DNA of 64,000 nucleotides, taken from positions 5,518,001 through 5,582,000 of the forward strand of contig JBHGNT010000021.1 of assembly GCA_043228905.1 (NCBI GenBank), given 5' to 3'. The notes below the pieces were generated by a model. The model saw nothing but the letters and a program-made list of their open reading frames with translations, did not search any database and had not been told where the DNA came from. The DNA comes from Azolla caroliniana. Its lineage: Eukaryota > Plantae > Polypodiophyta. The stretch's first letter is position 1; every line of letters begins with the position of its first letter. This document shows positions 3,228 through 64,000 of this stretch, in pieces. Made by a program: the position numbers and the translations under genes.

Positions 3228-3251
3228 CACGCCATAGATTCTTGCAGGCCA

Positions 3252-24200: not shown

Positions 24201-25385
24201 ACATCAACGGGGCGATTCATTCTTTAGGAATTTCTATTGATACCTATATAGAGGAAGTAGACTTCCATGTAATGAATCTTAGTACCACCGATGTAATACT
24301 GGGTTATCCCTGGTTTTATAATAAAAGCTCTTCTTTATTTATTGATTGGGTTCGCCATTCCATTTCTTTTGTACTCAACGATTGTACGCATTTTATTCAA
24401 TGTGTAACAAAACAATCCCTCTCGATTGTTTCCTCGTGTCCATCAATATCCGAGTTGTCTTGTTCTACGTTATTTTATTGTGTACTTGATCCGGACATTC
24501 ACGTTTACAATATCGATAATGTCTCGGGTCAATTAACATATTTTGAACAAAAACAACTTGATGAAATCGTAAACGATTTTCGTGATGTTTTTCCGAGTGA
24601 ACTACCCGATGGTTTACCTCCTAAACGTAATATAGACCATCGTATAGATATTGTACCTGGCATTGCACCCATTAGTATACCTCCGTATCGCCTAAGTCGA
24701 TCTGAAGAGGATGAGGTAGCTAAGCAACTTAAGGACTATTTACGAATGGGTTATATACGTTATAGTAAATCTCCATGGGGTGCACCAGTTCTCTTGGTTA
24801 AAAAGAAAGAGGGCACATGGCGTATGTGTATTAATTACCGACGCTTGAATAAAGTGACGATCAAGAATTCGTACCCATTGCCCCGGGCTGACGATCTAAT
24901 TGACCGTCTCCAGGGAGCTCGGTATTTTACGAAACTTGATCTCCGTACTGGCTACCATCAAATACGAATAAGTGAGGACGATGTTCCTAAGACAGCATTT
25001 CGTACGCGCCACGACCATTATGAGTTTTTGGTTATGCCTTTTGGTTTGACCAATGCTCCGGCTACATTTCAACAAGAAATGAATGACATTTTCCGAGAAC
25101 AACTTGGAAAATTTGTCGTTATCTTCTTAGATGATATTTTAGTTTATAGTCGTACATTACAAGAACATGCTAGACATGTCCGCTTTGTTTTACAAATATT
25201 GCGTGACAAACAATTTTACGCGAAGATCTCAAAATGTGAGTTCTTCAAGAAATCAATTACTTATCTTGGACATCTCATAACCGAACGAGGAGTTGAAATT
25301 GATCCTTCTCGCATCGAGAAAATCAAGCTTTGGCCCACTCTTCGGAATATTCGAGAAGTTCGATCATTCCTTGGTTTTGTCGGAT
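21257..25385 (+). mobile_element. Ty3/gypsy (chromovirus-type RT) element, 3'-truncated after RT
   Basis: LTR tail, then an iMet-type PBS at 21315, a 1.7-kb leader and a gag-PR-RT ORF that is replaced by LINE sequence after RSFLGFVG. Confidence 0.88.
21315..21327 (+). promoter_or_regulatory. Primer-binding site (tRNA-iMet type)
   Basis: TGGTTTCAGAGCC, one mismatch to TGGTATCAGAGCC, 2 nt after a probable LTR end (ctaaTA, CA>TA). Confidence 0.75.
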
Positions 25386-27418: not shown

Positions 27419-29768
27419 TTTCTTTTTCCAAAAAAACACTACTACGCATTAGTTAGCAAACAAAATTACATCATAGAACACCCAAAGTTCCTCTCACCAG
27501 CCCTCACTCTGGCCTTCCCACCAAAGTGGACATAGTCCCCACCTCATTTTCAACAAACGTATCCAAACAACTCCAATAACCTAATAATTTGTACCATATC
27601 TATACAGATTTACAGCACCTAGACGCTGTTGGAAACCGGAAACAGCCATGGGGTGCTTGGTAGTTCCATTGAGGCCCTGATGATGATCTGCCCACCATAG
27701 GAGAATTACCCCATTTCAGCAAGAACTTTGATCGAGATCTTTCAGCTGCATCAGATTCCCCCTTAATTGAGTCGTATCGTCCCCGCAGCCAAGATACCAA
27801 CTCAAACCAGATATTTAATAATACCTCACCGCTAGGGATCTTTTGTTGTTGAAAAACAAATTTACAACGGTTGGTCCAAATGTGCCAGACCAATAAACAA
27901 GACACCATCATCCATATCTCTTCAAAAAATTCTGAGTTAGTGCCATGTCGAACTCCAGCCCGTTGAAACACCTTGCCATCCTGCACTATAAAACCATGTC
28001 CGTGGGGGTTTAACTGTTCAGCCCAGCCTTCCCCTGTTAACTTCAGCCCTTGTACGGACCCCCATACAACTCTCCCATTCACTCCGCATGCTGCCACTAT
28101 CCTGAGACTTCTACCCCAAATGTTAATAGCCTCGCTGCAATTCCAAAAACAATGAGGAATTGATTCCAAAGGGTGTCCACAACTTTTGCATCCAGCCTCA
28201 CCACCACGACACCTAAGCCACTCCCCCACCGGCACCGCTTTGTGACTAAGAAGCCACAACCAAAGCTTTATTTTTTCTGGCATATCGAGCGCCCATAGCC
28301 TCCTCCAAAACAACTTCAACCAGTCATCAGAAATGCCTTTATCCTTCCAACTATTGCGAGTTAGGCCAGCACCCATCAATTTAGAGCCAATGATTTGCCT
28401 TCCTAGCTTGGTAGTGTACTCGAAAAACCGTTCAAGTTTGTCCGTTCCCGGTTTCTGCCACCACACCTCTAGTGGATCCCAATCCAGATCACATATGGGT
28501 TTGTTGTCAACTATCCAAAGTTTACGATCAGATTCCAGCTTCCCTGGGTCCGGGTTTACTTGCCACTTCTTACCTTCCAACATTGCCACTCACACTGCCA
28601 ACCACTGGCCATTGTCTGCCAAAGCACTTAGGTTGCCCCACAAACGATACTCATTAGATGGGCACCTACCTCAGATAATTTGTGCATCGCCCTCACCTAC
28701 AAACCACCCAAACCAGACCCCCTCTTCTTCATTCAGCTTAGTTAGACCATCAACAGCCTTATCTATCAAGTGGGTAACCTTTTCCAGCCTGCCGGTAAAT
28801 CTAGGACTTCCAACCAGACGCTCCCTTCTTCTCCTTTTGAACTCCTCCCAGTCTCTTACTGAACTAACATTGTACCCTACCATTTTTCCCCATTGCAAGT
28901 ATTTTTTCTGACCAAGCATCATACCATCATCACTTCGAATCCTGGGGTTCCAAAACAAAGGTTGACGGAGTTGTTCCTCCATTGTTTTTGGCTGCATTAA
29001 GACCAACCCCTCTCTTAAACTTGACCAGGCCCTCATTATGGTGCGGGCCACCCTATCCTCCATGCTAGTAGGTTCTTTTAACGTTAGGCCTGGACTGAAC
29101 AACCACCACATCTTTGCCTTCCAAGGGCCGCCATTCCTCGGACTCCAGAGTTCAGCTCTGTCTCTAAGAAGCAATTTCCACAATTCTGGTCCAGGTTGGA
29201 GACTTCGCACCAAGAGCTTAGCAAGTAAAGCCTTACTTTGGTGAACTGGATCCACCATCCCAAGTCCACCTTGACTTTTTGCTTTGATCAAACAACTCCA
29301 GGCCACTTTAGCTGAAGCAGTCTCATGGTCTCTACCCGACCAAAGGAACCCTCTCACCATTGCCTTAATATTTTTTATGCACTCTTTATCTAACATCCAG
29401 CATGCCAATGAGTGCCACATGGTGGCCAACAAAATATGGTTTACCACAACCACTCTACCTGCAAGGGAAAGCTTTACTGATGCCCATAACCGAAGCTTTT
29501 TTCTGATTTTGTCTTTCACTTGCTCAAGTTGCTAATTTTTCTGAATCTCTATTCCCACCAAAAAGCCCAAATACTTAACAGCCCTTCCATTAGGAACCCA
29601 TTGAAAATCAGCATTAGGTTGCCCATTCGGCCAAGAGTTTGGACTTACCCAAAACCCTCTACTTTTGTTCCAATTAATTTTCCCACCTGATGCTTTACAA
29701 AACAACTCAATTCGATTTTCAGCCTGCTGTAAATTAGCATCATTGCCTTGCAGATAGAGCATGGTGTC
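27419..29768 (-). mobile_element. 5'-truncated L1-clade LINE with a 9-bp TSD
   Basis: Starts in the RT core (DTMLYL), then KYLG, LSLAGRVVVVN, KVAW, GGLG and zf-RVT (CKSCGHPLESIPHCFWNC). TSD catatagtt at 27410-27418 and 29769-29777. Confidence 0.92.
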
Positions 29769-31955: not shown

Positions 31956-34834
<2,879 letters not shown>

Positions 34835-41749: not shown

Positions 41750-43538
41750 TATCGCCTTTGGAGGTCAAATATGAACTATGAGACCAGAAATATTACATTT
41801 CACGTGATACATGTGAAAGTGAGTAGCGACTCTCAATGTTCAAGAACTTTACCGATGAATGTTGCAATCAAGAGTGCAGATTGTGGTTGTGAGAGAAATT
41901 CGTGCAAGGATTGAGCTTGGTTAAAGATGTGTGGAAAGCATGACCGAATATGATCAAAGGCAGAGCATTGTATCGAAGTGTGATACTCAAACTCTCCAAC
42001 TTGTTTTGGACAAAGTGTGCATAGTCGACCACTCTCATCTCTTGTGCCCCAATGCCCCCTCTCACATCGCAATGCATGTGAGCTAAGTCGCATGGAAGCA
42101 ATGGTTCAAATGACAAATAACAAGATGGGCTCTAACATGTATTGATGTGTATGGTTTCCTTGTTCCCTGAAGAATATGGTTTTGTAGTTAGGTGCAACAT
42201 GTGTAGTATAATGTGTAGACAATGAGCCGAGTCCACATTTGTCCCATGCCATGATACATTGGCATTGCAAAAAGACCTCATTTACAAAGGTATTTAGTGA
42301 TGCATCATGAAGCAAGTGCATTGCATCCCATCTACCAAGCCATTTTTTCATATCTTGCATCCAACTGGAACACAAATTTTTCTTTTAAGCATCTTTTGGA
42401 TCTTTTTGCTTGCTTCCCATGCAATTCTAGGTAGTTGATGTGAGGGATTTTTTTGAATCTTAACCATGTATTCAATAAACCTTTCCATGGCTATGATCGC
42501 AATGGGAAGTGATCTTGTCTCAAGGAGGAGGGGGAGGAGGGTGTATGATGTTTGTTTCTTTACTTGTAGAACTTTGTAAGAATATATTGTATGATGTTTG
42601 TTTGTTAACTTGTAGAACTTTGTGAGAATATATTTGAACATTTTCAAACTCTTTCTAAGTAGATTTAGGGATGCTACCACCCCATAGAGAAGCCCTAGTG
42701 TCACGAAAGTGTCAAAAAGGTATATCTTGAGGATTCAATACAATATCTCCATGATTGCATGTGTTCTCAAATGCATAATATGCTCGCTTCCCCGCTTCTA
42801 AGCGGCATGTAGCGCATTCATTCCATCTATGATTTGAAGGAACTTCAAGGCCAAGTTATTTGAAGCTTTTCTCACATTCAAGTGGCTCATTATTGTATAT
42901 AATGCATGGTTTATCTTTTTGGGGCCTCTTCACAAGCATAATCTTTGTTTTAGACCGATTGTCACTTAATTTAGTATGCATGCAAAAAATTCCAATGCCT
43001 TCAAAAGTTTTTGTGCATCTCCTAAAGTATTTGCAAAAAACACTACATCATTTGCATATAGCAAAAGCATAATGACAACATTCCCAATGGCAAATTCTTC
43101 AACACATTCTTCCTTTACAAATGTGGCAACCATTTCTTCCAATTCATCAATGCATAGGCCAAATAGAGTTGGTGATAGTGGGCATCCATGCTTAACACCA
43201 ACAAATCTAAAAGTTTATCTCTCATATGCACACAACATATAACATTCTCATATATTCAGGAAATTGCAAGCATATATTATTGGCACCTCGAGTTCTTCCA
43301 TTCACCTCCAAAGATGCTCACGAGGTACCATATCAAAAGCTTTCTTGAAGTCTACGAAGCAATAATATAAACCTTTACCTCTAAGACGACTTTCCTCCAT
43401 TAATACTCGAAGGGCGACAAGGTGATCAATGGTGCTATGGTGTTTTCGAAAGCCAGTTAGTCCATAAGCTCTCTTATCTCTTTTTTTCATCTCATGCACT
43501 TATCTTTGATTCCATTATACATCCAAATAGTTTTGCCA
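41750..43538 (-). mobile_element. 5'-truncated RTE-like LINE (decayed)
   Basis: GFRKHHSTIDHL, FVDFKKAFDMVPRE, GVKHGCPLSPTLFG, LLLYANDVV and C-terminal LSSHALRCERGHW...CTLC. Confidence 0.85.
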
Positions 43539-43599
43539 TGAGAGAGAGAGAGAAGATTAATGGCCTTTTGAACAACATGATCAACATTTCATATTCCAA

Positions 43600-44290
43600 G
43601 AGGTTATACACCTTTACTTGAGATAAGTTGCAATGATTATTATCATTGTATGACCCAATTCCTAATTTAGATGGGGGATCTCAAGAGCTTGATTGGACAT
43701 TTGTTGGAAATAGGAGATTGACTATGATCTCAACAAATGATGTCTATCACAAGTTGATTGACAAACCTAAGCGGATGGAAGAAAGGGTTCTTGTAAGCCC
43801 ATTAGTTGGTGGTTTCATGTAATCAAGGCATGTTAGTGTTCTCGATTGATGCTACGATCTGCAATAATCATTTGGCGGGTTATGGTTGGAGCTTTAGCAT
43901 TGGGGGGTGCATTAAACAAGGGAAACATTGTTAGAGGAATGTGTTTCTTTTGTTCCATGGAGTTGGAACATAGTAGGCATCGATTTCTTTCATGTTCGAT
44001 GGCTAGAATGGTTTGAAGATGTATCAATTTAGTGTGGATGTTTTTAAATAGTGTAAGACTATCTTCATTAGTTGGGGTTTTTCACATATGGAGAATAATG
44101 AGTTGACGTCTCATTTCCAAATTATTTTTGAGTTCATGAGGTTTTGGGGGCTATGGTTCAATTGGAATATACGGAATGCCTTCACTTTTTATTTGCAAGT
44201 TAGTGAGGAAATATGTTGTAAAGTTAAAAGGACTTCTTTTGTGGCAATTAACAGTGTTGGAGAAGTCACAAAACCTCAACCATGAAGAGA
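43600..44290 (+). mobile_element. Decayed L1 ORF2 C-terminal fragment
   Basis: WRVMVGALALG, CFFCSMELEHSRHRFLSC and FWGLWFNWNIRNAFTF motifs. Confidence 0.6.
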
Positions 44291-44943
44291 GAGAACGTTG
44301 CCAGGTCACATATCATCATAACCCTAAACCAAATCACAAAACATTTAAATTGACATTGTTCAAACCAAGAGGTATGTATTAGTGCTAAACATATTATATG
44401 TTAACTTTGGCACAATTATTTAACAAAGAGTTTTCCAACCAAAAGTCGTGTGTATATAAACTTAGAAAAAATGAAAATATTGGACCTCAAATGTTATAAC
44501 TTATTATGTTTGATATGCTATAACTCTTAGTTTAATAAAGTTAATTCATAAATTTAGTAAATATTTCAAAAATGTCATAACCCTAAACCATTCAACTATT
44601 TAAACTATGATTTAAAGATGGCATGGTATAATTGTAAACCATCAATCCAATAAATGGTCAAACCAAACTTACTGAACACCTAGGCCCCAAGCCAAACCAA
44701 GCCATTTTACAAATTTCTATATCTAAATAGAGTAGAAATAAACCGAATTAGTTAAATTGTTGTGCCACATTTGTTTGTGGTTTGCTTTGGCTTAAACAAA
44801 AACATAACCAATTCCTATGTGTGATGTTCTTTAAATGTGTATATGCTTAGCACTTAAGCCTTTGTAAGCCATTAGTTGATTTCTTAATTAGAATTGTCTT
44901 AGTGAAGGGTGAGCAAGAGTTCGTATGATTAGGGTAACTGAGA

Positions 44944-45475
44944 TGTTATGAGCATAATTGTAACCGTTGTTGTGGGCTAATTCATAAGGATGAAGGGCGA
45001 AGATTAAGTTATCTCAATCTTACAGTGGAGATACTTCATCTATTAGAATCTTAATTAATGATATGCAAAATTTAAGAAGGAAATAAGGATGAATGGTCAG
45101 TCCATCCAACCACCCCTTAACAAAGGTGGGAGACAGGTCTCAGTCCCCTACCAATGTCACATACCATTGTGTACAAACATGGATCATAGCTAAAGGAGGC
45201 ACACATGTATGAAGCTAGAGTTTTGCCACACTATCAGAGTCTCTATCTCAAACAATAAAGAAAAGAGATCCCCCTTTATGAAGGTAGTTAGCCATCTTAT
45301 ATAGGCTCAAACCTTAGGCCCTTGTATGTTTCACACTTGGTTGTTTTGTATAAAAAGTAGCCAAGTGATGAAACACTCTAAAGTTATCCCCCATTGTAGG
45401 ATTGAGATAACTCAATCCTCACCCTTCATCCTTACAAATTAGCCCATAAATATGGTTACAGTTATGCTCATAACA
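44944..45475. mobile_element. 532-bp TG..CA element with about 95-bp terminal inverted repeats and a 5-bp TSD
   Basis: tgttatgagcataa...tctcaatc is the imperfect reverse complement of gattgaga...ttatgctcataaca. TSD tgaga/tgagg (4/5 match); internal cctatataag on the minus strand. Confidence 0.8.
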
Positions 45476-45666
45476 TGAGGTTAGGGCTTGAGAGTGTTTA
45501 ACAATTATCTGGCCCGACTACAATATCATTTCAACAAAAAATATAATACCAATACTGTTAGCGACATGACTTAATCCCAAATCTTTATTCCATGGATATT
45601 GTCAACAATTCCAAAATATGATTTTCAAACTTATGTAGTCTTATAGGTCATCGCTTGCTACGCATT

Positions 45667-45954
45667 TTGAGCTGCTTTTCTAGCTACATAGGCTTGCCTT
45701 CTTTGGTCTTTCTCCTTCGGGATTCGATCTTTTACTACAACAAAATTTATACATTTTAGGTACACATTGCTACTATCTATAACTCTTAACTCTTTTTCTT
45801 ATCATCTAAGTTGAGCTGCTTTTCTAGCTACATAGGCTTGCCTTCTTTGGTCTTTCTCCTTCAGGGTTTGATCTTCTACTACAACAAAATTTATACCTTT
45901 TAGGTACACCTTGCTACTATCTAAAACTCTTAACTCTTTTTCTTATCATCTAAG
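45667..45954. repeat. 144-bp tandem duplication
   Basis: ttgagctgcttttctagctac...tcatctaag at 45667 and 45811. Confidence 0.92.
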
Positions 45955-46974
45955 GTTGTACAAATAATCCCTCAACATGATTCTCCTTCTAACCTCTTTC
46001 GACCAACTCAATGTGTTCCATATACCATAAATAGGAGTAAACAATGACTCGCCTCAAGCCTGAACTGAGGCATTAATCTGTTTTTAAACGGTTTGACATA
46101 TCAGTTCGGTTTAGTTCAAGCTTAAGCTTCCTTAATCGGTTTGCCCTCGGTTTGGGATGGCTCAAGCCCACTGAACCATTTTGGGCTAACCGTTTCTCAA
46201 ACCGATTAAGGCTAATAAGTTTGGCTAAATTGGCTCCTAAACAAGTTTGGCAACTGGTTTAGGAACCAATTTGTCTCAAGTTTGAAAACTCTCAAACCAG
46301 TTAAGTCGAAATTGAACCGTTGTTGATTCTTAACCAAAAATTCATGTAAAGCACAAAGATTGTCAAAACAATTCATGATATTTCTAGTGAGGGAGAGTGA
46401 TTTCTCAGGTTCCTCTTCTTGCATCCCTATAATGACAATCGTTTACTTCCTTTTCTCTCTTTCATATAGTTATTTGGCATCAATGCATCCTTTGAAGTGG
46501 ATTCAAGTTAACTTCGTTAAACATTTTCCTTTGGCATCTTCTTATTGAGAACGTCTCTCCATTTCATAATGATTGCATCTTATTTTGCCTCAAGTTTAGA
46601 CTTCATTTCAACATTTGCTTTGATTAACGATTCTTTCTTGGCTTTTAAGATTGTCATTTTGGTTTATACTCTTGAATTTGCAATGCAATTTTCTTCATAG
46701 CAAGTAACCCCTCTTTCAAATATTTATGCATGAGTTCCCTCTCATTACAAGCATGTACTTCATTCTTTCGATGGGCAAATAATGTGAGTTTCCACCAATT
46801 TTTTCGATACATCATCAACAACCTTTGATTCCCTTTCAATCATTGTTGACACTATCTCTAATTTCTATGACCAATATTTAGAATATGGTCCTTTATTACT
46901 CCTCTCCCTCTTTGAGTTCCCCTATTTTTTGTCTCTTGCGCCCCTCTCTTAAGCAAGAATCAATTAATTCCTCT

Positions 46975-47503
46975 ATGAATGATGCCTTTTCGCAACACCA
47001 ATGTATCACGACATGGGGAAATTTGGAGGCTCAAACTTCACACATTATATTGCATATGTTGCACCTAACTACAAAGCCATATTCTTCATTCAATGAGTAA
47101 ACCACACATTGCAACACATGTTAGAGTTCATATTGTTTCGTGCCATCCAAAGCATTGTTTCCATATGACTTAGCTCACACTCACTACAATTTGAGATGAG
47201 GTGTGGGGGCGTAAGTGGTGAGAGTAGTTGACTATGTGCATTTCATGTTAAACAAGTTTGAGAGTCTGAGTATCGCACTTCGGTACAATGCTCTATCTTT
47301 GATCACATTCGATTATGTTTTCCATACATCTTCAACCAAATGCAATCCCTGCACAAATTTCTCTCACAATCACACACTATCAATTGTAACCTTCATTAGT
47401 AAAATTTTAAACATCAAGAGTCACCACTCACTTTCACATGTATTATATGAATATGTTATATTTTTTATCTCATGGGCCATATATAACCTCGGAAGACGAT
47501 ACT

Positions 47504-50763: not shown

Positions 50764-50775
50764 TGGTATCAGAGC
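50764..50775 (+). promoter_or_regulatory. PBS (tRNA-iMet) of the copia element
   Basis: TGGTATCAGAGC directly after the LTR CA. Confidence 0.92.
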
Positions 50776-51191
50776 GATTTGGTAGCTCGATCTACCCCAC
50801 TCACCTCATCGTGATCATGTGTTGTGCTCTACGCCGATGTTCAAGAAGAACCGACTCATCGCTATCATAGTACCATTACATAGCTCGTGTTCGAGAGAGA
50901 AGGAAAAGAAGAAAGGAAGCTTCATCGACAATGAATACTCAAATCGGGAGTGCTCTCCCTAGCGAGAAGCTAGATCGAAACAACTTTGCATCTTGGGAGT
51001 ACAAGATGCACCAATACCTTGTCGGCCAAGGCTATTGGGGTTACATCAAAGGAGCACAAGAAAACCGACCCGACCCGAAAGACGCCGACTATGCAACGTG
51101 GGAGCAAGCGGCAAGCTGAGTGATGTATTGCTTGGCCACATGTGTTCACGACCGCATGCTTGGCTACATTCAAGAAGCCGAGACGCCAAAG

Positions 51192-51610
51192 TGTTATTCT
51201 CTAGCCGGACAAGGCCTAACACAAGGTGTCACGGAGACACTTCACCAAAGGGTGATTACGGCATAGGATTAAGATTCAACGATTACACCGACTTACATAG
51301 GTTACACGATTAGAATGCTTCGGTTAATTACACGCGTAAGATATAACAGTAATTACAGAACGGAAATCAAGACAGAAGTATAAACAACATAAGCTCTATT
51401 AATTATCCGCCGTCATTACAATGGGGTCCGGGCCTTTAAATAGGTTTCCGGCCCGTAGTACAAAACGGTGCCTCTCGCACCTATTCGGGATCCGTCCGGA
51501 TCTGGAACGGCATACCGTTTCCAGTCCGTCCGTCCACACTATGCTCATTTACAACCATATCTAATTAATTCCTTCACTCCGTATTTTGGACTCCTTGCCC
51601 GCCGGTAACA
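51192..51610 (-). repeat. 3' LTR (419 bp)
   Basis: Near-identical to 60661-61079; TATA-like cctatttaaagg on the minus strand. Confidence 0.96.
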
Positions 51611-51612
51611 CA

Positions 51613-51650
51613 TGGCACGCCCGTGGGACAGTACCTTGTACGTCGAACCC
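51613..51650 (-). promoter_or_regulatory. tRNA-Arg 3'-end mimic at the PPT position (reads as a PBS on the + strand)
   Basis: Minus strand GGGTTCGA-cgtacaaggtact-GTCCCACGGGCGTGCCA-tg-LTR; plus strand LTR-ca-TGGCACGCCCGTGGGAC. Confidence 0.7.
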
Positions 51651-51662
51651 TTCTCGGCCCCT

Positions 51663-54578
51663 TCATTGTTCACCCAAATTGTCCAAATTACTTTGTTCAA
51701 GAATTTCCACTTGTTCTTCCGGTTGTGGTTGTTGCGGCTGTGCTTGCTGCTGCTGCTGTGGTTGCGGTTGGGACTGAGGCTGCTCCGGCTGCTCTGCTTG
51801 CTGCTGCTGCTCCGTTTGTTTCGCTGACTCCGGCTGCTCCGTTTGTCTCTCTGGCTCCGGCATCTCCGTTTGACTGCTTCCGGTCCGGTCTCCTTCCAGT
51901 AAGGGTTCCTCATCACTGAGGTTGACCGTAACTGGTTCTCGTTCTTTCTCTCCCCGGATCCGGGACCTCTCGTAGCTTTCAAACTGGATCTGCGCCTCCA
52001 TCCTGTCGTCGTCCAGCTGAGCTACAAGTTGCCGGACTTGCTCTAGTTGGTCCTCTGCCAAGGCTTGAAAGTCTTCGGCCAGCTCATCTCTTATGCCGGT
52101 AAAATCTTCAGAATTTAGCATATAGCAATCATCTCCCTCCTTCCGCCGGTTCTCTACGTCGGCCCGGAGCAATTGGAGTTCCGCCGCGTTCGTGGCCCAC
52201 TTGGTCCACCATTTGACGGAACCGTTGTCAATCAAGCTCTTGGTCTGGTTCAACCAGGCCCGCATTATATCCTGGATGCGACTTGCTCCCATTTGCGCTC
52301 TGCTTTCCACCACTTGTCGCTCCTCCTTCAACTGCTTGATGAGGTTTGCCGTATCCTCCGCCTGCTCTCTGTAGCGCGTCAGCTGCCCTTGATATGTCGT
52401 TTGCAGCCTCTGCAGCACCTCCGCCGCTCTTTCTTTTTCCGCCTGCTGTTGCCTGAGGAGCTCTGTCCGAACCTTCTCCGCCTCTTCCAACCGTCTTCTG
52501 TTTTCCGCTTGTTCCTTGGCGAATGCGGTTGCGGTCCGATCAACTGCTTGCCGGAGCTCATCCGTCCGTTCCTTGTGCTCCGTTTGCAACCGTTTATACT
52601 CCCGGTGCAATTGCTCAAATTCCTCCGTTTTTTGTTTGAGCTTGCCGTTGATCTGGCGATGGTTCCGGTCCTCCCGGTCCTTTACCTGCCGGAGTTCCTC
52701 TTTCAGGCGCTCTACTTCTGTTTCGGCGTTCCTCCGGAGCCTCTCCTTCTCTTGCAGCATTTTCTCCTTCTCCTCCTTGAGCCGGTCGTACGCTTGGTGG
52801 CCTTTCCGTAAGCTCTCCTCGGCCCGGCGTAGATTCTCAGCAGTCTTTTTGAGTTCTGCCTCCGCTGCCGTCTTCAATTCTCTTTCGCGGCTCCTCAGCG
52901 CTTCTTGGGCAACTAGCTCATCCTTTAAATCCGCAAGCTCTTGGGCTTGTGCCGCATTTCTCTCCGGAACGGTTTCCGTTGCCGGGGTCTGATTGCTATG
53001 TACAGGTTGATTTGACACTTTATTCTGTACATTGCCCGGAGTCACCGGTGCTTGGACTTGTGTTGTCAAAGCGAATTGAGCCATTTCCCTTGTGACCCTG
53101 TCCAAGTCTTGTTCAAGGCTCCGGATTCTGGACCGGGCCGTCTCTAGATCTACGGTTGTGATGAGCAACCGTTCCTGGTGCGCTCTCTCTTCCGCCTCTA
53201 TATACTCGACCGCTCCGGCGATTTGCTCGCCTACCCACCGTAGCCACATGCTACTGGTGCCTTGTTGCTGTACTGGTCGGGTCGGCTCATTCCCTGTGGA
53301 ATTGTCTGGCCTGAGTGCCTGCATATGCCGTTCTGGTTCTACTCCTTGGCCGCCGTGTGCTCTGGCTGGGCTCGCCGGCTGTTGAGTTCCGGTTCTCGCC
53401 GTCTCCGGAGCCGTTGGACTGACTTCTTCTATAGAAGTCGACAAGACCGGTTCCCTACGCACCGGTTCCGGTTCTTCCCTTGTGGTTTGCTCAGGTTGAG
53501 TTGGGGGCGTTTCTGCCTCTCGCGGGTACGACCGCTCCCCTCCTGTCTCGGCGGCCCTACTTCTTGACCGTCGTTGGAGGTGCTCTTCTGGCTCCTCCGT
53601 TTCCTCTTCCTGTGTCACGGCATGTTTCTGTGCCGTCAAGGGTTCCGGTTCCTTCTGTCCCGGTCTCCGTAAGGTTATCTTGACGGGTCGGACCGGTGAC
53701 ACCTCCTCCGGTTCTGGGACCCGTTTCTTCCCTTTCGTCGCCTTCGACGCCAGCAGCTGCTGTCGTTTGGACGCCGGCTTCGAGGTGCTTCCTTCCGATA
53801 CTCTTGGCCGCTTCTTTGGCTGAACGGTCTCGACCGGCGGCACGAGCAATGTTATCCACTGAGCGACGGCATGCCACAGCTTCCGGCCCTCCTTGCCGTC
53901 CTTTCCTCGTACCATGTCGATTGCCACGCACAAACCGTCTGCAATCAACACCGGCCAATCCACCTTGGTCCCTTCATAGGTGGCTATGATCATCCTTGCC
54001 CGACTTTTTGGCATGACAGGGGGTCGGGGGTACACGTGGCCGTACTCATGGAGCACTCGAGCTATCTCCCTGAACAGCGGATCTTCGCCGCCCTGCGTTC
54101 GATAGCCTTTGCCGGCAACAGAGTACTCACCGAAATATCGGGTGAGTTGCTCCGAGGTTGGATTATCAATCTGAAAAATTCCTCCCTCCGGAAGGCCTGT
54201 TAGCGCACGGATCGCTTCCTCGGTGATGACTTCCTTGTCGAGCTCCTTGATGACCTGGTCGGCTTCTCTGTGCGGTGGTGCTTCCATGATGGCCAAGAAG
54301 CCCTCCAGTCCGTGTTGCCTGAACCATTTCCTGGCCGCTTCCGACAGCGGTTGTGGTTCCATGTCTGCTTCGAGGTCGAGGAAAGATGGCGAGGTAGAGT
54401 GGTGATGAGAGTGAGGACGAGAGAGAGAGCGTTCTGAACGTGGGGGTTCTCTGCGTGCAGGTTCGCGTTTGCTCAGCTTCCACTGTCTTGGTGCTTCTGT
54501 GCTTCTTGGCTCGCGAAATGAAAAGGTCTCCATGCGTTCTGCTTCTTCTTTGTGCGTTTTGGCGCCTTTTTCGAGCAT
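51663..54578 (-). CDS. Extra retrotransposon ORF (about 970 aa): globular N-terminal region, long coiled coil, Gln/Pro-rich tail
   Basis: Intact ORF between pol and the 3' LTR, first ATG at 54578; E/K/R/Q heptad-rich central part; no clear transmembrane segment. Confidence 0.8.
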   Translation of the reverse strand: MLEKGAKTHKEEAERMETFSFREPRSTEAPRQWKLSKREPARREPPRSERSLSRPHSHHHSTSPSFLDLEADMEPQPLSEAARKWFRQHGLEGFLAIMEAPPHREADQVIKELDKEVITEEAIRALTGLPEGGIFQIDNPTSEQLTRYFGEYSVAGKGYRTQGGEDPLFREIARVLHEYGHVYPRPPVMPKSRARMIIATYEGTKVDWPVLIADGLCVAIDMVRGKDGKEGRKLWHAVAQWITLLVPPVETVQPKKRPRVSEGSTSKPASKRQQLLASKATKGKKRVPEPEEVSPVRPVKITLRRPGQKEPEPLTAQKHAVTQEEETEEPEEHLQRRSRSRAAETGGERSYPREAETPPTQPEQTTREEPEPVRREPVLSTSIEEVSPTAPETARTGTQQPASPARAHGGQGVEPERHMQALRPDNSTGNEPTRPVQQQGTSSMWLRWVGEQIAGAVEYIEAEERAHQERLLITTVDLETARSRIRSLEQDLDRVTREMAQFALTTQVQAPVTPGNVQNKVSNQPVHSNQTPATETVPERNAAQAQELADLKDELVAQEALRSRERELKTAAEAELKKTAENLRRAEESLRKGHQAYDRLKEEKEKMLQEKERLRRNAETEVERLKEELRQVKDREDRNHRQINGKLKQKTEEFEQLHREYKRLQTEHKERTDELRQAVDRTATAFAKEQAENRRRLEEAEKVRTELLRQQQAEKERAAEVLQRLQTTYQGQLTRYREQAEDTANLIKQLKEERQVVESRAQMGASRIQDIMRAWLNQTKSLIDNGSVKWWTKWATNAAELQLLRADVENRRKEGDDCYMLNSEDFTGIRDELAEDFQALAEDQLEQVRQLVAQLDDDRMEAQIQFESYERSRIRGEKEREPVTVNLSDEEPLLEGDRTGSSQTEMPEPERQTEQPESAKQTEQQQQAEQPEQPQSQPQPQQQQQAQPQQPQPEEQVEILEQSNLDNLGEQ

Positions 54579-54689
54579 GCACACGTCGTGTACCAATTTA
54601 GTATTAAGTAGCGTGGCGGCTCTTAAATGCCCACTACGTACCTTTTCGCGCCTTGCTTTCACACCCGTTCATACCTCGATTTTTAATGA

Positions 54690-54720
<31 letters not shown>

Positions 54721-54756
54721 AAATTTTTTTTTTTTTTTTAATGACGGTGTGTGACC

Positions 54757-57700
54757 TTACACATCCGTAGGTCCCCTCGGACCCTTACCGTTTTCCTTAC
54801 GGGTTGCCGTGTCTTCCTTCGCCTCTGCTACTGGTTCCCCGTCGTCTTTTTCTTCCGGACCGATACGTACCGATCCCGGTGTAGTGCCGGTGAGCTGCAT
54901 AAACGGGTTCTTTGGCATCGGTCCTTTATAGGGTTTTAGTCGAAATCCGTTTACCCACTTGCCTAGTACTTCACCGGCAAGTGTCCCTATCTGATAGGAC
55001 CCGTTGTATTCCCGTGTCAGCCAATACGGGCCTGTCCATCTGAACCGGAGTTTACCCGGCATCTTGCCCATCCTCGTTTGGAATACTAGCACCGGCTTTC
55101 CGATTTCGAACATCTTCTCATTACCTTTCCGGTGACGGTCAACGAACGCTTTCCGTCGTCGTTGCTCCAGTTCCATGTGTAGGATGCTGGCCAACCGTTG
55201 CTCCTCCAGTTCGCATAGTGCTGCTAGCCGCATTTCCTCCGACTTCTTTTCATTCAGCCATTCCCGTAGTTGGATCCGTAAGCTTGGTACCTGAAATTCC
55301 ACCGGCATGACCGCTTCTAAGCCGAATGCTAACCGGAACGGCGTTGTCCGGATACTTGTTTTGTATGCCGTTCTGTACGCCCATAGCGCACTATGGAGCT
55401 TTGTGTCCCAGTCCGTCCGGTTTTCATTGACAATTTTGCGGAGAATGTTCTGCAGCGTTTTGTTGGTGGACTCTGCTAACCCGTTCGCCTGTGGGTAGTA
55501 CGGTGTGCTTCGTTTATGGACCACGGCATAGAACGTTGTTAAGCTTTCCACTACCTGGCCAAGGAAGTGGCCTCCTTGGTCGCTGATTAATTCAATCGGA
55601 CAACCATACCGGCACCAAATGTTTTCGTACAGGAATTTTGCTGTGGATGACGCGGTGTTGTCTCTCAGGGCCTTAGCTTCCACCCATTTCGTGCAATAAT
55701 CCGTTGCCACGATGACATAACGATTACCTGTTCTCATTGCCGGTGGCTTGAACGGTCCGACAAAATCCAACCCCCACTTCTGGAATGGCTCTAGTGGAAG
55801 TACCGGTTGGTGTGGCATCCGTGCTTGCTCCGTAGGCTGGCCCATTCGTTGGCATAGGTCACATTCCTTAGCATACTTGACGGCGTCTTTTAACGTCGTG
55901 GGCCACCATAAGCCGCTCTGCCATACTTTCCTCGCCGTCGCTTCCCCGGCATAGTGTCCTCCGGCAACCCCACAGTGTGCTTCCCGTAAGATTACTTCTT
56001 TCTCGTCACTACGGACTGCCCGTCTCCATATTCCATCTGCTCCTTTGTGGTAGAGAGTGTCCCGTAACAGACAGAAATTGCGGCTCTGCACCGCCAGTCG
56101 TTTCCTCTCGTCCCGGTTCATTTCCTCCGGTGGCAAGCCCGTGCTTAGGAACTGGTGCATGTTTGTCAGCCATTTATCTTCTGATGCCACCGTGTCGTCC
56201 GCTGCCGTTTCCGGGGTGATACGGAATAACTCCGCGTCCGGGAATTCATCCGCTACTCCGTCGCCTTGTTCTCCGGACTCTAACCGGCTCAGGTAGTCTG
56301 CTACGGCATGCTGGATACCGGGCCGGTGGAAAATCTCGAATTCGAACTCCTGCAACAGCAAGGTCCAACCGGCCAACTTACCGGTCAAGGACGCCTTGGA
56401 AACTAAGTAGAGGAGCGCCGAGTGATCCACATGGAAGGAGAACTTCCTTCCCAATAGGTAGTGACGAAACTTTGTTACACTGTAGATCATGCCCAGGGCC
56501 TCCCGTTCCGTCGTTGAATAGTTCTTCTCCGCTTGGGACAGCTTCCAGCTGGCGTAATATACCGGCCGGTACCATTTAGGCTCCGTAAGTTGCATTAAGG
56601 CGCTGCCAATAGCGATGTCGGAAGCGTCCACGAACACATGAAATTCCTTGCTCCAATCCGGAGGCTGCACGACGGGTGCTTGCGATAAGAGTACCTTCAG
56701 GGCATTGTATGCCTTATCCTCCGTATCCGTCCATTGGAACGGTGTCCGATGTACCGCGGTGTGTAATGGTGTAGCCAAGTCAGCCAAGTGACGGAGCATC
56801 CGGCTGTGCCACCGGATCTGTCCTAAGAATCGGCTTAGTGCTTTGGCCGTTTTCGGCGCCGGTGCCCCTAGTATGGCGTTTACTTTGTCCGGGTCGACCG
56901 CAATGCCCTCCTTACTTACAATGTGTCCCAGCAATATTCCACTTGAAACCCCAAAGATGCATTTTGCTGGGTTTAAGCTTAGCCGGTATAACCTACACTT
57001 TTCAAGGCATAACCGTAGGTGCTGCAAATGGTCTTTTCCCCGGCTATAGACTGCAAAATCATCCAGGAAAACTTGCATGAAGGCAGGAATGTATTCGCCG
57101 AAGATCTCCATGATGATTCGCTGGAAAGTTGCTGGTGCCGTTTTTAGGCCGAACATCATGACTTCGGCCACAAACACCCCCCATTCGGTGACGAACGCTG
57201 TCTTCTCCTGGTCGTCGGGGTGCATCCGGATTTGATTGTATCCGCTGAAGCCGTCTAAAAAGCTATAAACGTCATGGCCGGCGACGGCATCCAGTACTCC
57301 ATCCGTGAACGGAAGAGGGAATGCATCCGTAATTGTGGCGGCATTTAGTTTCCTGTAATCTACACACACACGGATTTTACCGTTCTTCTTTGGGACGACG
57401 ACGATGGGGCTCAGCCACGTCGCTTTCTTTACCGGCCGGATGAAGCCCACTCTTAGGAGTTTGTCGATTTCCTCCTTCACTTTGGCGGCGTAGTTGGGGT
57501 TCATTCGGTATCGTCTTTGCGCCACTGGTTTCGCGTCCTTGCCTAAGTGGATCTGATGCTGATATAATTGAGGGTCCAGCCCTCGCATGTCTTCGTATGA
57601 CCAGGCGAATACGTCGCGAAACTCCGTGAGAAGTTTGATCATCGCCGCTTTATCTTCCGGCTTCATTTCTTTGGCGATGTGTACCGGCTTTGATTCGTCC

Positions 57701-60609
57701 TTGCTTCCTAGGTTCACTTCGTCGAGCTGGGATGCTTTTACCCGTTGGGAAACGGCCATTTCCCGTTCCAACGCTTCCTATGCTTGCCGTAATTCCCGAA
57801 TCGCATCTTTGTCTGGTTCGGCTTCGGTGTCGTCCCGCTGCGGCAAGTATGCGGCTACGGCTTCAGCTACGTCAATCTCGAAGAGTGGTACGATCTTCGG
57901 ATGTTCCTCCAAGTACTGGGCTTCTTCGTCGTCTGCCAATCCTTCAAGCATGTTCACACATTCCGCATACAACGGTGTGCATTCCTTACCGTTGCTCGTC
58001 CGTGGTTGTGTCGGTACCCGGACCTTGGCTTTTCCGCGCCGGAAGGTAATCATATTTTTTCGCCAATTTTGCTTGATGTGTGCTGTTTTCAACCATGGTC
58101 TGCCCAGCAACAGAGGGTACGCGCCTTGCGCCTGTAGCTGCAGCACTACAGCCGAGATGTGAAATGTGTGACCTCCTATGGTGACTTCCAATTTCCGTAT
58201 TAAGCCCGTCGGCCGTACCGAGCTCGTATCCGCCATCCGTAGCTAGAACGGGCATGGCTCCCATTCATGTATTCCCAAGGCATCACACGTACGGAGGCTT
58301 ATTACGTTCACCCCGGAACCTCCATCGATTACGGTGCCGGGAAGTTCGTGCCCTTTGACAATAGCTGTAATCGCCGGACTACTAGTGTCCACCACCGTCG
58401 GTCCCTCCTCCGGATTCGAGAAAAGGACTGGTGCCGGTGGAGCTATACCGTCTGTCATGACCGTTTTTAGTCCTTCTGTGAATCGCAGCACGAGCTGCAA
58501 GAGTCTTCCTAATGGTAACGTGATCTGACATTCTTGTAGTGCTTGCCATGTCTCGTTTTCTGGGTGGCTACCGCCGGCACTCCCTATGGTCTTCGCCTTT
58601 TGCCGTTCCGCGTCCGCGACGTTCCTTTCATTGGCTTCCTTCACCCATTCCGTCGCCTGTTTTCGTATGGCCTCTTGTGTTTCCCATTCTTTGGCCATGC
58701 CTTTCGACCGTGTGGTTACTTGCTGTAAATCCGCCACTTCCAGAACCACCATATTAACTGCTGGTCGTTTCTCGTAGCTCTTTACCGGGCACTGGTTACT
58801 GTAGTGGCCTTCCTGCCTGCAGTAGTAGCAGTACTCTTTACGGGTATTGCTGGATTCAGCATTGCTGGTAGCCGGAGTCGGTCCCGTAGTGAGGGGTGCG
58901 TTCTGTGCCGGTTGGCTCCTTGGGGTTCCCTGTTCCGGGTCCCTAGTGTGACCACCTTTCTTGAAATTACGTTTCTTATTATTCTTATTTTTATTTCGGT
59001 AGTCCGGTCGTGGTAGATCGTAAAATCGGCCGTAGTCCTCTTGGTGCCTTCGGTAACCCGGGGAATGGTCTCTGTCGTATTGCTCGTGTCGTCTGTTGGG
59101 CTCCCGATAACGGTCCGATCGCTCATACCGGTCGTAGTTATCACGCCGATTCCCGTACCGGCCATCATTCTCTTGCCTGTCCCCGTACCGGACATCCTGT
59201 GCCGGTGGGTACCGGTTCATTCTTTGCCAACGATCGTCATCTTCGTCTCGGCTGCTTCTTGGCTCGATCCGTTGGACGGGTGGTGCTTGTCGATTTAACA
59301 GGTTGTACTCGCACCGGTCCGTTGTATGACTCTTGGATTGACAAATCACACACTGAGTGCGCATGGTGCACTCTACTGCCGAGTGTCCGGCATTCAAGCA
59401 GATTGTGCATTGAATTGCCTGCCGGAACCGGAGATCTTCCTCGGTGGGTAACGCCCGTTGCAGTGTTCCCAGCGTAAGCCATGAGCTTGTCTTTTCCATT
59501 TCTCTGACCCGGTCAATGACCTGGTCGATGGTGCATCCTCGAAAGTCGATTACCGTACACACCGTGCGTAACGGTTCCCGGAGTGCGTTTAAAAATATCG
59601 TCCGTAATTCCTCCTCCGGGGGTGCACGGGCAAGCTGGCTATGCATTCGTTGGAAACGGATGACGAATTGGGGAATGCTTTCCCCTGCCTCCTGCCGGAT
59701 CGTATAAAACAGGCCCACCATTGTCGTCTGGTCGACCTCCTTGTGGAAAAAATGCAAGAATTTTGCTTTTAATTCTGCAAAGGTTGTGATGGTCGCCGGG
59801 TCCTGCGTGCGCCGCCATCGTGTCGCCGGTCCCTCCAACGTGACTCCGAATTCCGCTATCTTCGAGCGTTCTTCTTCCTCCGGTGTCATTCGCTGGGACG
59901 TGTGATTTGCTTCCCATGTCTGCTCGAAGTCATGAACATGCGCTTCTGCGTCCGGGTCATCGCGATACTTTGAGTATTGGAACGGCATGTCGTCGTCCAG
60001 TATTAGGCCGCGGTTTAGTGGCGTTTGTTGATATCTTTCCGGTTCTTTTTCCGGTTCCACTTCCGGTTCTTTTGCCGGTGCTTTTTCCGGTTCTTTTTCT
60101 GGCTCTTCTTCCGGTACCTTTGCCGGCTCTTTCGTTGGTGTTGGTGGCTTTGCTTCTTCCACTTCCGGTGTTGGTGGGTTGACGGCTTCCGTTTGCGGTT
60201 CCGGATAGCCCTGGTTGAGCGGTTCCGGTTCTGGAGTCGGCACGGTATCCGACCCGTCGTCTTCCGGGCCGCCGGGGGTATCGTTGCTGCTCCGGTAGTT
60301 CGTGTGCACGCTGTATCCCCCTTCGGAATCCGATTCGTAGGCTGAAAAGGCTTCTGCCTCGTTTTCTCCGCTTGCCAGCGCCTCCAGGAGGCGTTCGGTT
60401 TCCCGGAGACTACTTAGACTGCTTCCGTCGTCCTGGTCGCGAGTTTGCCGTAACCGGAGAGATTCCTCCGCGACTCTCCGGATCTCGTTGGAGAATGAAC
60501 GATCCGAGCGAATTTCCTGCGCTGCTTGCTGGAAAGTCTCACGTCGTCTTTGCCGTTCGGCGAGGCGTCGAGCTCGGTCTGTAACCAAGTCGTGCGTTGG
60601 TCTAGTCAT
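54757..60609 (-). CDS. Gag-Pol polyprotein, single frame, with two premature TAG stops (58243-58245, 57778-57780)
   Basis: The three listed ORFs are in the same frame. Three CCHC knuckles, VIDGGSGVN protease, LDGFSGYNQI and FLDDF RT, VDASD RNase H, GLDFVGP and PQANGLAE integrase, GPY motif. Confidence 0.92.
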
Positions 60610-60642
60610 CCATTACCGTCGTTCGCTGCGAGAAAGCAGGAA

Positions 60643-60654
60643 TCGTGGTCCCCA
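60643..60654 (-). promoter_or_regulatory. Putative minus-strand PBS (tRNA-Arg-like)
   Basis: TGGGGACCACGA begins 6 nt after the 5' LTR and is one mismatch from the recalled tRNA-Arg-type TGGCGACCAC. Confidence 0.5.
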
Positions 60655-60660
60655 AAACTG

Positions 60661-61079
60661 TGTTATTCTCTAGCCGGACAAGGCCTAACACAAGGTGTCA
60701 CGGAGACACTTCACCAAAGGGTGATTACGGCATAGGATTAAGATTCAACGATTACACCGACTTACATAGGTTACACGATTAGAATGCTTCGGTTAATTAC
60801 ACGCGTAAGATATAACAGTAATTACAGAACGGAAATCAAGACAGAAGTATAAACAACATAAGCTCTATTAATTATCCGCTGTCATTACAATGGGGTCCGG
60901 GCCTTTAAATAGGTTTCCGGCCCGTAGTACAAAACGGTGCCTCTCGCACCTATTCGGGATCCGTCCGGATCTGGAACGGCATACCGTTTCCAGTCCGTCC
61001 GTCCACACTATGCTCATTTACAACCATATCTAATTAATTCCTTCACTCCGTATTTTGGACTCCTTGCCGGCCGGTAACA
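60661..61079 (-). repeat. 5' LTR (419 bp)
   Basis: Matches 51192-51610; followed on the minus strand by the PBS and the gag ATG at 60609. Confidence 0.96.
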
Positions 61080-64000
61080 CAAAGGAAGCGTGGGAGAATC
61101 TACGAAAGATTTTCGCCGCCAACACAATCGCGAGAAAGCTTCAACTCCACCAAGAGTTGAACAACATCCAACAAAAGGATATGTCCATCACGAGCTACAC
61201 CTTGAAGATCAAGGAGCTTTGCGGCTCGCTCGGCTCGATAAGCGTGAATGTGAATGACGATGAGATGGTGCAAATATGCCTCGGCGGCCTTGCACCACGG
61301 TTCGGCGCGATGAGGACCATCGTACTAGCATGGGAGAATCCTCCCTCTTTCTTCGATCTTCAATCCATGTTGTTGGTCAAAGAGAATCATGTTTAAACAA
61401 GGAGCAATGCCTTGGAAGGCCACATGCTCTACACGCATCGGATGGAGGAAGAGGACGCGACCGTGCAAGAAGAGGCCGATTCGGCCAAGGATGAGGCGGA
61501 CGAGGCCCGAGTTAGGAAAACAACTCTCAATTACGACAACAAGATGGAGGCCATCGAGGAACCTTCGGAAGAAGGGGGAGCCACCATTCCAATCCGAGCC
61601 AACAAAACTCGGTCGAATGCGGATATTGTGGAAAAATCGGTCACCACGAAGAAGAGTGTCGTAAGAAGATGCGCGAGTCGGCTTCCACTAGCCAACAACT
61701 CACCAATTACGCCACCAACTCCGACTATGACGATTGTGGAGGAATGTTCATGATGAGACATAGAGCAAATTCTATGTCAGCTTCTACTTCAACTAGTGCC
61801 TTCGGTCCGAAAGACGTATGGCTCATCGACTATGGTGCCTCAAACCATATGACGTCTCATCAAGAATGGTTCCGAGAAATTCGAGAGCCGGAACGACTCG
61901 ACTATGTCGAAACCGGAGACGACACTACACATCCGATTCGACATATTTGCAATATCCCATTCGGCAAAGAAGGTAACCAAACTTTTATTAAAAATGTCTT
62001 GCATGTATCAACCATTACGAAGAATTGGGTCTCCGTCGGCCAAATTGTTGAGCAAGGGATGCAAGTATGATTTAATCAAGGTGGTTGCTTCATCGAAAAA
62101 GAAGGCCGACTCATCGCTCACAGACAAAGAAAGGGCCGAATGTTCATTCTCGACTTGCACGAGATGAAATCGGCCATGTTCGCAAAGGGCACGAAAGCCG
62201 ATTCCGACATAGAGTTATGGCACAAGCAGATTGGCCATAACAACCTCCAAAAGCTCAAGGCAATGCAATCAAAAGGAATCGTCATCGGGCTCCCGACATT
62301 AAAGGAGAAAGAGATTGAAGGTGTGTGTGCCGCTTGCCAATTCGGCAAGCAACATCGGCACCCATTTTTTAAGGAGAGGAACGTGAGCAAAGGCGTACTC
62401 GACGTAATTCATTCCAATGTATGGGGTCCGACTCAGACGACTACATTCGGCGGATGCCGATACTACGTGACCTTCATCGATGACTTCTCCAAGCACACTT
62501 GGATCTACCCCATGCGGCAAAAGAGAGAACTATTCGGACACTTCCAAAAATTTAAGAATGAAGTCGAGAAAGCCACGGGCCAACATGTACGATGCCTTCG
62601 ATCAGATGGAGGCAAGGAATATTTCTTGAATGAGTTTATGGCATATCTACGGAAAGAAGGAATTCAGTGAGAGTTTTCATGTCGACATATGCCACAACAA
62701 AACGGAGTGGTCGAATGAAAGAATCGGCACATCCTTGAAGTAGCACGGGCCATGATGAACGAAAAGCACATGCCAAAGTCGTACTGGGTAGAAGCGGTTA
62801 ACACAGTTGTATACCTCATGAATCGGTGTACGACATCGGGTGTGCACAAACTTACTCCGCACAAGGAGTTTTTTGGAAAGAAACCGAACCTATCACATGT
62901 TTAGATATTTGGCTCTATTGCATACGTGCACATCCCCAACAAGAAGCGCCAAAAGCTTGACCCGAAGTCGGAGAAATGTATCCTCGTAGGATACTCATTG
63001 GAGCAAAAGGGGTACAAGTGATATAACCCCTCAACTCGAAAATCTCAAGTAAGTCGAGACGTCATTTTCGACGAGTCCGCATCTTGGTAGCACCAGAGAC
63101 AACTTCGACTTTGATTCCACTCGACCTGGAATCCGCCGAAATAGAGATAGAAGCTGAAGATCGGCTCACACGCATGTTCGAAGAAAGCCCAATTACGACA
63201 AGGCTTAGTGGGCCACAAGTGCCCCGAGTGGTCAAAGCACATCTCGGCTGAGTCTGAAGCTAGACAAAGGGAAGGCGAAAATGCCGAAGTATGAAGACGA
63301 TCACTTCGACGGCAAAGAATCGACTCACTCTCTCGATAGTGAGTTCGAAGGCCTTGACATCCGGACAAATGGAGTGAAGAAACCCTTAGTATCCACAAAC
63401 GAGAAGCTCCGCTGATCCACCTGTGAAAAGAACCCCGTAAGCCGATTCGGCTACAATGATTATATAGTGTACCATTACGCCTTTATGATGAAGGTAGCAA
63501 TAGTACGGGAGCTAGAAACCTTTTCCAAAGCCGTGAAGGACCCGTGATGGGTCGAAGCAATGAACAAGGAGATACAGGCACTTTGCAAGAACAAAACATG
63601 GGATTCCGTTCCCCACTCACCGCACAAGATCTACAAGGTGAAGTATAATGCTGATGGCTCCGTAAACCGCTACAAAGCTCCATGGAGTCGTCTATGAAGA
63701 AACATTTGCCTCGGGGGCAAAGATGACGACTATCCGGACCGTAATTCCACTCGCAGCGGCGAAAGGGTGGCACCTCCATCAGATGGACGTAAAGAACACC
63801 TTTCTTCAAGGAGAATTAGAAGAGGAGGTGTACATGGTACAACCACCCGGCTTCGAATCCAACATTCATCCGAAAGCCGTATGCCAACTCAAGAAGCCAC
63901 TCCATTGCCTCAAGCAAGCACTGTGTGCTTGGCATTCCAAGATTACGCAATATCTTCATCAAATCGGCTTTTGAATGTCAAAATATGACAACTCCCTCTA

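Follow-up and report, generated by a model that had tools for sequence, protein, structure and literature searches.

A tRNA-Arg(UCU) 3′-end copy in place of the polypurine tract in a fern-type Ty3/gypsy group, and the possible priming of both DNA strands by host tRNAs

The data presented here concern a Ty3/gypsy long terminal repeat (LTR) retrotransposon in a stretch of Azolla caroliniana DNA (64,000 nucleotides; contig JBHGNT010000021.1, positions 5,518,001 to 5,582,000 of the forward strand), which is called the window and in which all coordinates are given. The element is young and 9,888 bp long (51192-61079), with gag-pol and an extra open reading frame (eORF) on the minus strand. A polypurine tract (PPT) abuts the 3′ LTR in most elements (PMC6317226), and priming of the plus strand from it is standard in retroviruses and LTR retrotransposons (PMC3185662, PMC6317226). 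Here that place is taken by a copy of the 3′ end of tRNA-Arg(UCU), and this conserved replacement of the PPT is real in the fern-type Ty3/gypsy group to which the element belongs. On the sequence comparisons given below we lean, slightly beyond even chances, towards a second host tRNA, tRNA-Arg(UCU), which would anneal to the minus-strand cDNA and prime the plus strand.

The 3′ LTR junction and its tRNA-like block

On the plus strand the left LTR is followed by CA (51611-51612), TGGCACGCCCG TGGGAC (51613-51629), a 13-nt insert (51630-51642) and TCGAACCC (51643-51650). In sense orientation the order is eORF stop, GGGTTCGA, 13-nt insert, GTCCCACGGGCGTGCCA, TG and LTR, so that the minus-strand cDNA reads LTR-CA, 2 nt and TGG at the block, which is a primer-binding site (PBS) directed into the LTR. 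The parts of the junction are given below together with their state in L002, the collapsed contig of a sister family.

51611..51612, minus strand: spacer of 2 nt that separates the tRNA-like CCA from the LTR and reads TG in sense orientation; the same in L002
51613..51629, minus strand: copies tRNA-Arg(UCU) positions 59-76 except for one absent base and matches perfectly over the last 11 nt, CCA included; PBS-like on the minus-strand cDNA
51630..51642, minus strand: 13-nt insert between tRNA A58 and G59, without any difference in L002; its predicted partners in the sense RNA are the CCA end and the start of the LTR
51643..51650, minus strand: GGGTTCGA, which copies tRNA positions 51-58 in the T arm; L002 retains TTCGA
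51648..51664, minus strand: run rich in purines, about 38-54 nt away from the LTR, with a core AGGGGC that L002 shares; may be a relic or a displaced PPT

No purine tract abuts the 3′ LTR in the 190 nt scanned upstream of it, where the best purine windows (13 of 15 purines) end 37-39 nt or about 95 nt away. An earlier note on this DNA had reported the missing PPT and a purine-rich run about 38 nt from the LTR, and both are confirmed: the nearest purine window ends 37-39 nt off, and the run is present with the core AGGGGC shared with L002. The coordinates given in that note all hold on recheck.

The tRNA identity of the block, described there as a tRNA-Arg(UCU) 3′ end with a 1-nt deletion and a 13-nt insert, is borne out by alignment to the tRNA-Arg(TCT) of locus L092. 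The agreement is 25 of 26 nt, made of 11 perfect terminal nucleotides, one missing, 6 more, the insert and then 8 of the T arm. The insert falls exactly between tRNA A58 and G59, A58 being the point at which reverse transcriptase (RT) stops when copying a tRNA primer (PMC3185662). Against the 3′ 30 nt of the same tRNA the block scores 32 and the best of 5330 window tiles elsewhere 22, and the terminal 11-mer of the block occurs once in the 64-kb window. The perfect 3′ match claimed earlier is present and is 11 nt long, not 10, when the tRNA end is taken from plant sequencing runs.

The motif was searched with a pattern allowing 0-13 inserted bases, and tRNAs were called by ARAGORN. Its insert-free form was met in 21 prokaryote contigs, where it was a tRNA-Arg 3′ end in 14 (13 TCG, 1 TCT) and stood without a tRNA in 7; one of two viral contigs with the motif also had tRNA-Arg there, and no non-Arg tRNA was found at any match. 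Four plant DNA runs contain the element, from organisms A, A, B and C in 3 studies, of which run X1 is possibly the window's own source. In all four, contigs cover the last 30 nt of the L092 tRNA with few or no differences, and their loose ends run on as the TCT anticodon arm and D loop (4, 6, 5 and 2 contigs). A matching tRNA-Arg(UCU) 3′ end, which the earlier note had asked for in the host, is thus found in four of four plant runs. In 3 of 54 plant loci (L026, L030, L068) the first 10 nt of the block site form an ordinary PBS in forward orientation. No tRNA gene was found in the 64-kb window or in loci L001-L081, and plant tRNA 3′-end strings were not found in the supplements of PMC5389709 or PMC13390833; a string match in PMC5381547 was dropped as an unrelated microRNA precursor.

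All four runs also contain LTR-like ends, of two or three different kinds, followed by a short spacer and by about 30 nt that are complementary to tRNA-Arg(UCU), exactly or nearly so, and reach well past A58 (on L092:1494-1527). These families have either unusually long ordinary PBSs or insert-free 3′ blocks, and they may be donors for inverted capture. At the loose end behind position 1527 in run X1, a 4-contig consensus gives a tRNA-like arm with an anticodon stem unlike that of the other runs, which is either a pseudogene or an element-borne tRNA copy.

A separate PBS-like site directed inward from the 5′ LTR had also been noted earlier and is found as described.

60643..60654, minus strand: 5′ PBS, preceded by a T-rich spacer of 6 nt; corresponds to about 10 nt of a 3′ end of tRNA type, other than that of Arg(UCU)

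This site, TGGGGACCAC, starts at 60654 on the minus strand; in L002 it is TGGCGACCAC, with one base different. Its T-rich spacer is like that of the normal PBSs of relatives, and the site itself is unlike the Asp-type PBS of L010, L017 and L018. In a model duplex with tRNA-Arg(UCU), with RNA parameters as a proxy, the block reaches -47.7 kcal/mol and the 5′ site only -19.4 kcal/mol; the 5′ site pairs so poorly with this tRNA that it needs another one. Among 72 viral-contig loci matching the 5′ PBS, none of them a host, a tRNA lies at the match in 44, for 7 amino acids, with 29 Arg.

Conservation of the block and the PPT of relatives

Metagenome relatives were taken as the best 80 of 521 matches, from 8 of the 64 parts of the collection. 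L002, whose RT is 92% identical to that of the window, alone among 81 loci has the block; its eORF end, block, TG, LTR, spacer, PBS and gag follow one another in a single orientation. Between the two, 34/35 positions of the block are identical, against 71% identity in the LTR, 62% in its first 60 nt and 60% in the 300 nt upstream. The single change in the block of L002 turns CCA into CTA, and therefore, of the TGG/CCA and 2-nt spacing whose conservation the earlier note wished to see, the spacing is kept in L002 and the CCA is not.

The four plant runs were compared over 51350-52050, with 24 of 273 loose-end rows listed, and the counts that follow are those among the rows listed. Contigs that share the block and then diverge at 51650 number 79, 64, 84 and 63 per run, with a mutual agreement of 0.47-0.53, and those diverging at 51604/51607, inside the LTR terminus, number 25, 21, 29 and 48. 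Inspected by eye in sense orientation, the four consensus cells past 51650 finish in acidic codons and a stop, as both eORF ends do, and the T-arm match is longer by a few bases. These loose ends suggest that many families with the same layout exist across three organisms. No variant is placed in the interval 51601-51687 among the 40 of 90 substitutions and the 12 of 21 indels that are listed. Summed contig depth peaks over the block; it does not give a copy number and was not treated as such. The sister copies, for which the earlier note had considered a normal PPT, thus carry the block and not a PPT, in L002 as well as in many contigs of three organisms.

A normal PPT stands at the LTR in 6 of 9 inspected distant relatives (L001, L010, L017, L018, L033 and L058), and the other 3 were unreadable. 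L010 is the nearest of the PPT-bearing relatives, with an RT 51% identical, and the close relatives L003, L004 and L049 stop short of the 3′ LTR. The viral contigs gave no relatives by single-protein query or by junction pattern, and one distant element by alignment query. The IMG/VR contig L001 (8465 bp), although recorded as viral, is an LTR retrotransposon that has a single 2387-aa open reading frame besides its normal PPT. The sole reverse-PBS match in 54 loci, L062, was rejected, as it reads like the normal PBS of an opposite-strand element outside the pol match.

Priming of the plus strand by a second tRNA and its rivals

In the sequence of events which we favour, a first tRNA would start the minus strand at the 5′ PBS. 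After strand transfer RT would copy U3 and the block, and RNase H would clear the RNA; the sense RNA so freed would fold on itself, its insert pairing with the CCA end through G.U pairs that are impossible for DNA, and the DNA site would stay open. The tRNA-Arg(UCU) would then anneal by its 3′ 18 nt, with one bulge, and by its T arm across the looped-out insert. RT would extend the CCA end of this tRNA through TG into the LTR, giving plus-strand strong-stop DNA, and once RNase H had taken away the tRNA, 2 nt would overhang the LTR CA and be left for the integrase to trim. The site would likely have originated as an inverted copy of the PBS-LTR end, aided by the inverted terminal repeat of the LTR. 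Taken as a whole, a lineage without PPT which starts its two strands from two different host tRNAs, the second on a bipartite minus-strand DNA site, and in which a G.U-dependent hairpin of the genomic RNA removes the competing copy, is a proposal that we hold at even chances.

The register of CCA, 2 nt and TG, the lack of a PPT, the tRNA identity and conservation of the block, the normal PPT of the 6 readable distant relatives and the separate ordinary PBS at the 5′ LTR speak for this reading. In the fold predicted for the sense RNA, the partners of the insert are the CCA end and the LTR start, joined via G.U pairs at -13.7 kcal/mol, and the DNA complement of the junction is predicted to fold weakly, at -3.1 kcal/mol. 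In these models the RNA copy might remove itself by folding, with the DNA site left open. The insert had been described in the earlier note as a mini-hairpin of its own; it forms one only in the antisense DNA fold, weakly, and not in the sense RNA, where its partners are the CCA end and LTR start. Longer junction folds are no better than shuffles (z -0.17, -0.62 and -0.01).

Several points weigh against this reading. Every mechanistic step is inferred from sequence. The annealing of a tRNA needs neither an invariant insert nor a fixed deletion, and both are kept; the CTA of L002 would mispair with the tRNA and yet keeps the RNA hairpin; and the G-run core AGGGGC, about 45 nt upstream, persists in the window and in L002. 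The hairpin of the sense RNA is modest against shuffles (z -1.79, 11 of 200 as good; L002 z -1.13), in an interval chosen after viewing. L002 is the only sister family read end to end, and for the others the orientation was judged by eye from loose-end consensus cells. Outward the T-arm match decays, with differences there between the window and L002. The probability of a variant-free stretch is 0.005 for an 87-nt interval picked afterwards and only 0.095 for the 40-nt block. The matching tRNA contigs may not be host nuclear genes, and run X1 is possibly the window's own source. The absence of reversion to the exact tRNA sequence says little, because Ty1 and Ty3 inherit their PBS (PMC7472051). 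The insert which annealing does not require, the CTA of L002 and the persisting AGGGGC therefore keep two rivals alive, a primer in cis and a displaced PPT. For the dual tRNA priming suggested in the earlier note, the geometry, the tRNA identity and the conservation stand, and between a tRNA in trans and a fragment in cis we can only infer.

As the primer in cis, the tRNA-like segment of the genomic RNA itself would survive RNase H, be cut after CCA as a lookalike of a tRNA-DNA junction and prime the plus strand in the fashion of a PPT. We take this to be unlikely, although it has the same junction geometry, accounts for the invariant insert and deletion and for the pairing between insert and junction in the sense RNA, and agrees with the L002 change, which preserves the hairpin. 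It has no need of a 25-nt bipartite match into the T arm, however, and the hairpin would take the fragment off the DNA that is to be primed. Hybrids of tRNA and PBS are, moreover, normally degraded by RNase H and not resistant to it, which counts against a primer in cis.

A displaced PPT is distinctly unlikely. In this reading the plus strand would start from the G-run about 45 nt upstream, and the tRNA-like block would be a spacer, conserved but trimmed later or kept for packaging, dimerisation or tRNA recruitment. In its favour are the purine-rich stretch (13 of 15) that stops 37-39 nt short of the LTR, the AGGGGC of the window and L002, which resembles the PPT cores of relatives, and a similar AGG(G/A)GC core seen by eye in 3 of 4 loose-end consensus cells. 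The distance from G-run to LTR nevertheless differs between the window and L002, the run lies inside the eORF in L002, all 6 readable relatives have their PPT within a few nucleotides of the LTR, and the exact register of CCA and 2 nt is left unexplained.

The block may also be a relic, a PBS captured inverted by a template switch and inherited without a role in priming, with plus-strand priming being sloppy or placed elsewhere; this we consider quite improbable. A ready donor is present in the same runs, namely an LTR-like end with at least 30 nt of exact tRNA complement, and Ty1 and Ty3 are described as inheriting their PBS without correction (PMC7472051), but the block is far more conserved than the flanking coding and LTR sequence, and the integration of this copy was precise at both ends and left a perfect target-site duplication (TSD).

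Still weaker is an antisense genome, raised in the earlier note, in which the packaged RNA would be opposite to the open reading frames and the 51613 site an ordinary minus-strand PBS: that site is the better tRNA match of the two with a textbook 2-nt spacing, and a TATAAA lies on that LTR strand, but the open reading frames and the TATA-like and CATTGTA motifs are co-oriented in the window and in L002, and the 5′ site has the T-rich spacer of the normal PBSs of relatives, which leaves this orientation very improbable. It also puts a tRNA-like end at the second-strand position; therefore two tRNA sites would still be needed, and a PPT is absent both ways. Inversion of all open reading frames between the LTRs was rejected on the same co-orientation of LTR motifs and reading frames in both families.

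The element, its classification and its setting

The two 419-bp LTRs (51192-51610 and 60661-61079) are direct, with TG...CA ends and 2 mismatches. The right one is the 5′ LTR, because all long open reading frames and the TATTTAA/CATTGTA motifs are on the minus strand; this placement of the four long frames and of the TATA-like motif agrees with the earlier note, one TATAAA lying also on the LTR plus strand.

51187..51191: left TSD copy, CAAAG, 5 bp
51192..51610, minus strand: 3′ LTR, 419 bp, TG...CA, 2 mismatches to the other LTR
51663..54668, minus strand: eORF, 1001 aa stop to stop, same strand as gag-pol
54757..57777, minus strand: RT-RNase H-integrase open frame, 1006 aa; RNase H acidic motifs present
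57778..58242, minus strand: protease-region segment between two in-frame stops, both absent in L002
58243..60612, minus strand: gag open reading frame (Retrotrans_gag, zf-CCHC; Pfam)
60661..61079, minus strand: 5′ LTR; TATA-like TATTTAA at 60905-60911, then CATTGTA, in the same order in L002
61080..61084: right TSD copy, CAAAG, 5 bp

The gag-pol of this copy is broken by the two in-frame stops, and L002 is open across them. The domain order is gag, protease, RT, RNase H and integrase, the protease being placed by position since no Pfam match covers its region. The Pfam scan of pol gave no archaeal-type extra RNase H (aRH) and no chromodomain. The eORF has no Pfam family and 3 homologues only; a weak Atlas lead to Transposase_32 / Athila ORF-1 scored 0.84, below the bar of 0.9. 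A 12-bp tandem repeat in 8 overlapping copies (60024-60155) is carried by gag, coding a Pro/Glu/Lys-rich stretch.

RT trees of 114 and 53 rows were built with midpoint rooting, L049 being excluded as too short; the Athila and Tat labels were given from host names and PBS type, not from REXdb references. The element falls in a clade of 11 rows (support 100/99) made of metagenome proteins and loci, within a loose group with Adiantum and Riccia proteins and apart from the seed-plant Athila-type and Tat-type clades. In its working it is like an Athila-type Ty3/gypsy non-chromovirus, and we assign it to no named lineage.

The features of the named lineages that follow are those given in PMC6317226. 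With Athila the element shares the domain order, the lack of aRH, the 5-bp TSD, a large extra open reading frame 3′ of pol and the T-rich spacer before the 5′ PBS. The dominant Athila PBS is, however, tRNA-Asp/Asn, and the Athila-type L017, L018 and L031 have a tRNA-Asp-type PBS and a normal PPT, which the element lacks, and form a separate RT clade (96/81). The Tat lineages (Ogre, Retand, TatI-III) are alike in using tRNA-Arg primers, and L026, L030 and L068 are the three loci with the same 10 nt as forward PBS; unlike the element, Tat has aRH and forms a separate clade (100/100), and L058 and L033 keep a PPT, whereas the Arg(UCU) site of the element is inverted and at the 3′ LTR. Phygy of moss and Selgy of Selaginella, compared by description only, are likewise non-chromoviruses of seed-free plants without aRH, but their TSDs are 4 bp long, their PBSs are of tRNA-Trp or tRNA-Ala type and they lack an extra open reading frame. 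Self-priming in Tf1/Tcn1 and TAR also uses a non-standard primer, possibly via RNA structure, but it replaces the minus-strand tRNA, whereas here the plus-strand PPT is replaced.

Chromoviruses differ by the chromodomain after the integrase, which is absent in the element. In the bipartite PBS of Ty3, the extended tRNA boxes of Ty1 and the primer activation signal of HIV, pairing goes past the core PBS into the T arm of the tRNA; the pairing proposed here reaches the T arm as well, but in those systems the complement is on the genomic RNA and serves the minus strand, while here it is only on the minus-strand DNA.

The gypsy element sits inside the gag of a decayed Ty1/copia element (50764-51186 and 61085-64000; Pfam matches), whose PBS, starting at 50764, we take to be of Met type by its motif. 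Elsewhere in the window a PPR gene (1602-3371, minus strand) has named top matches mostly among Ceratopteris and Adiantum proteins, which by itself points to a fern as the likely host, and exons at 5097-7260 and 32514-34826, both on the minus strand, look by eye like G-protein beta (WD40) and glutamate dehydrogenase genes, which we presume them to be. Inverted repeats of 347 nt (41882-47374), 4.8 kb apart and 78% complementary, possibly mark a DNA transposon. Remnants of another gypsy-type gag-pol, 32% identical to the pol of L002, and fragments that by eye resemble long interspersed nuclear elements lie at 22913-25384 (plus), 14571-15768 (minus) and 27603-29531 (minus).

A tRNA-primed or PPT-independent plus strand of this kind was not found reported in open-licence PMC and bioRxiv, subscription journals being outside the search, and the word "fern" is absent from the main text of the standard plant survey. 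Annotation tools which orient elements by PBS and PPT could flip or discard such elements. If the proposed priming is true, the second primer would be exchangeable for a tRNA in a successful natural lineage, and the block would be a short substrate for studying how RT and RNase H select plus-strand primers. It would also suggest that a primer site can jump between LTR ends through inverted repeats.

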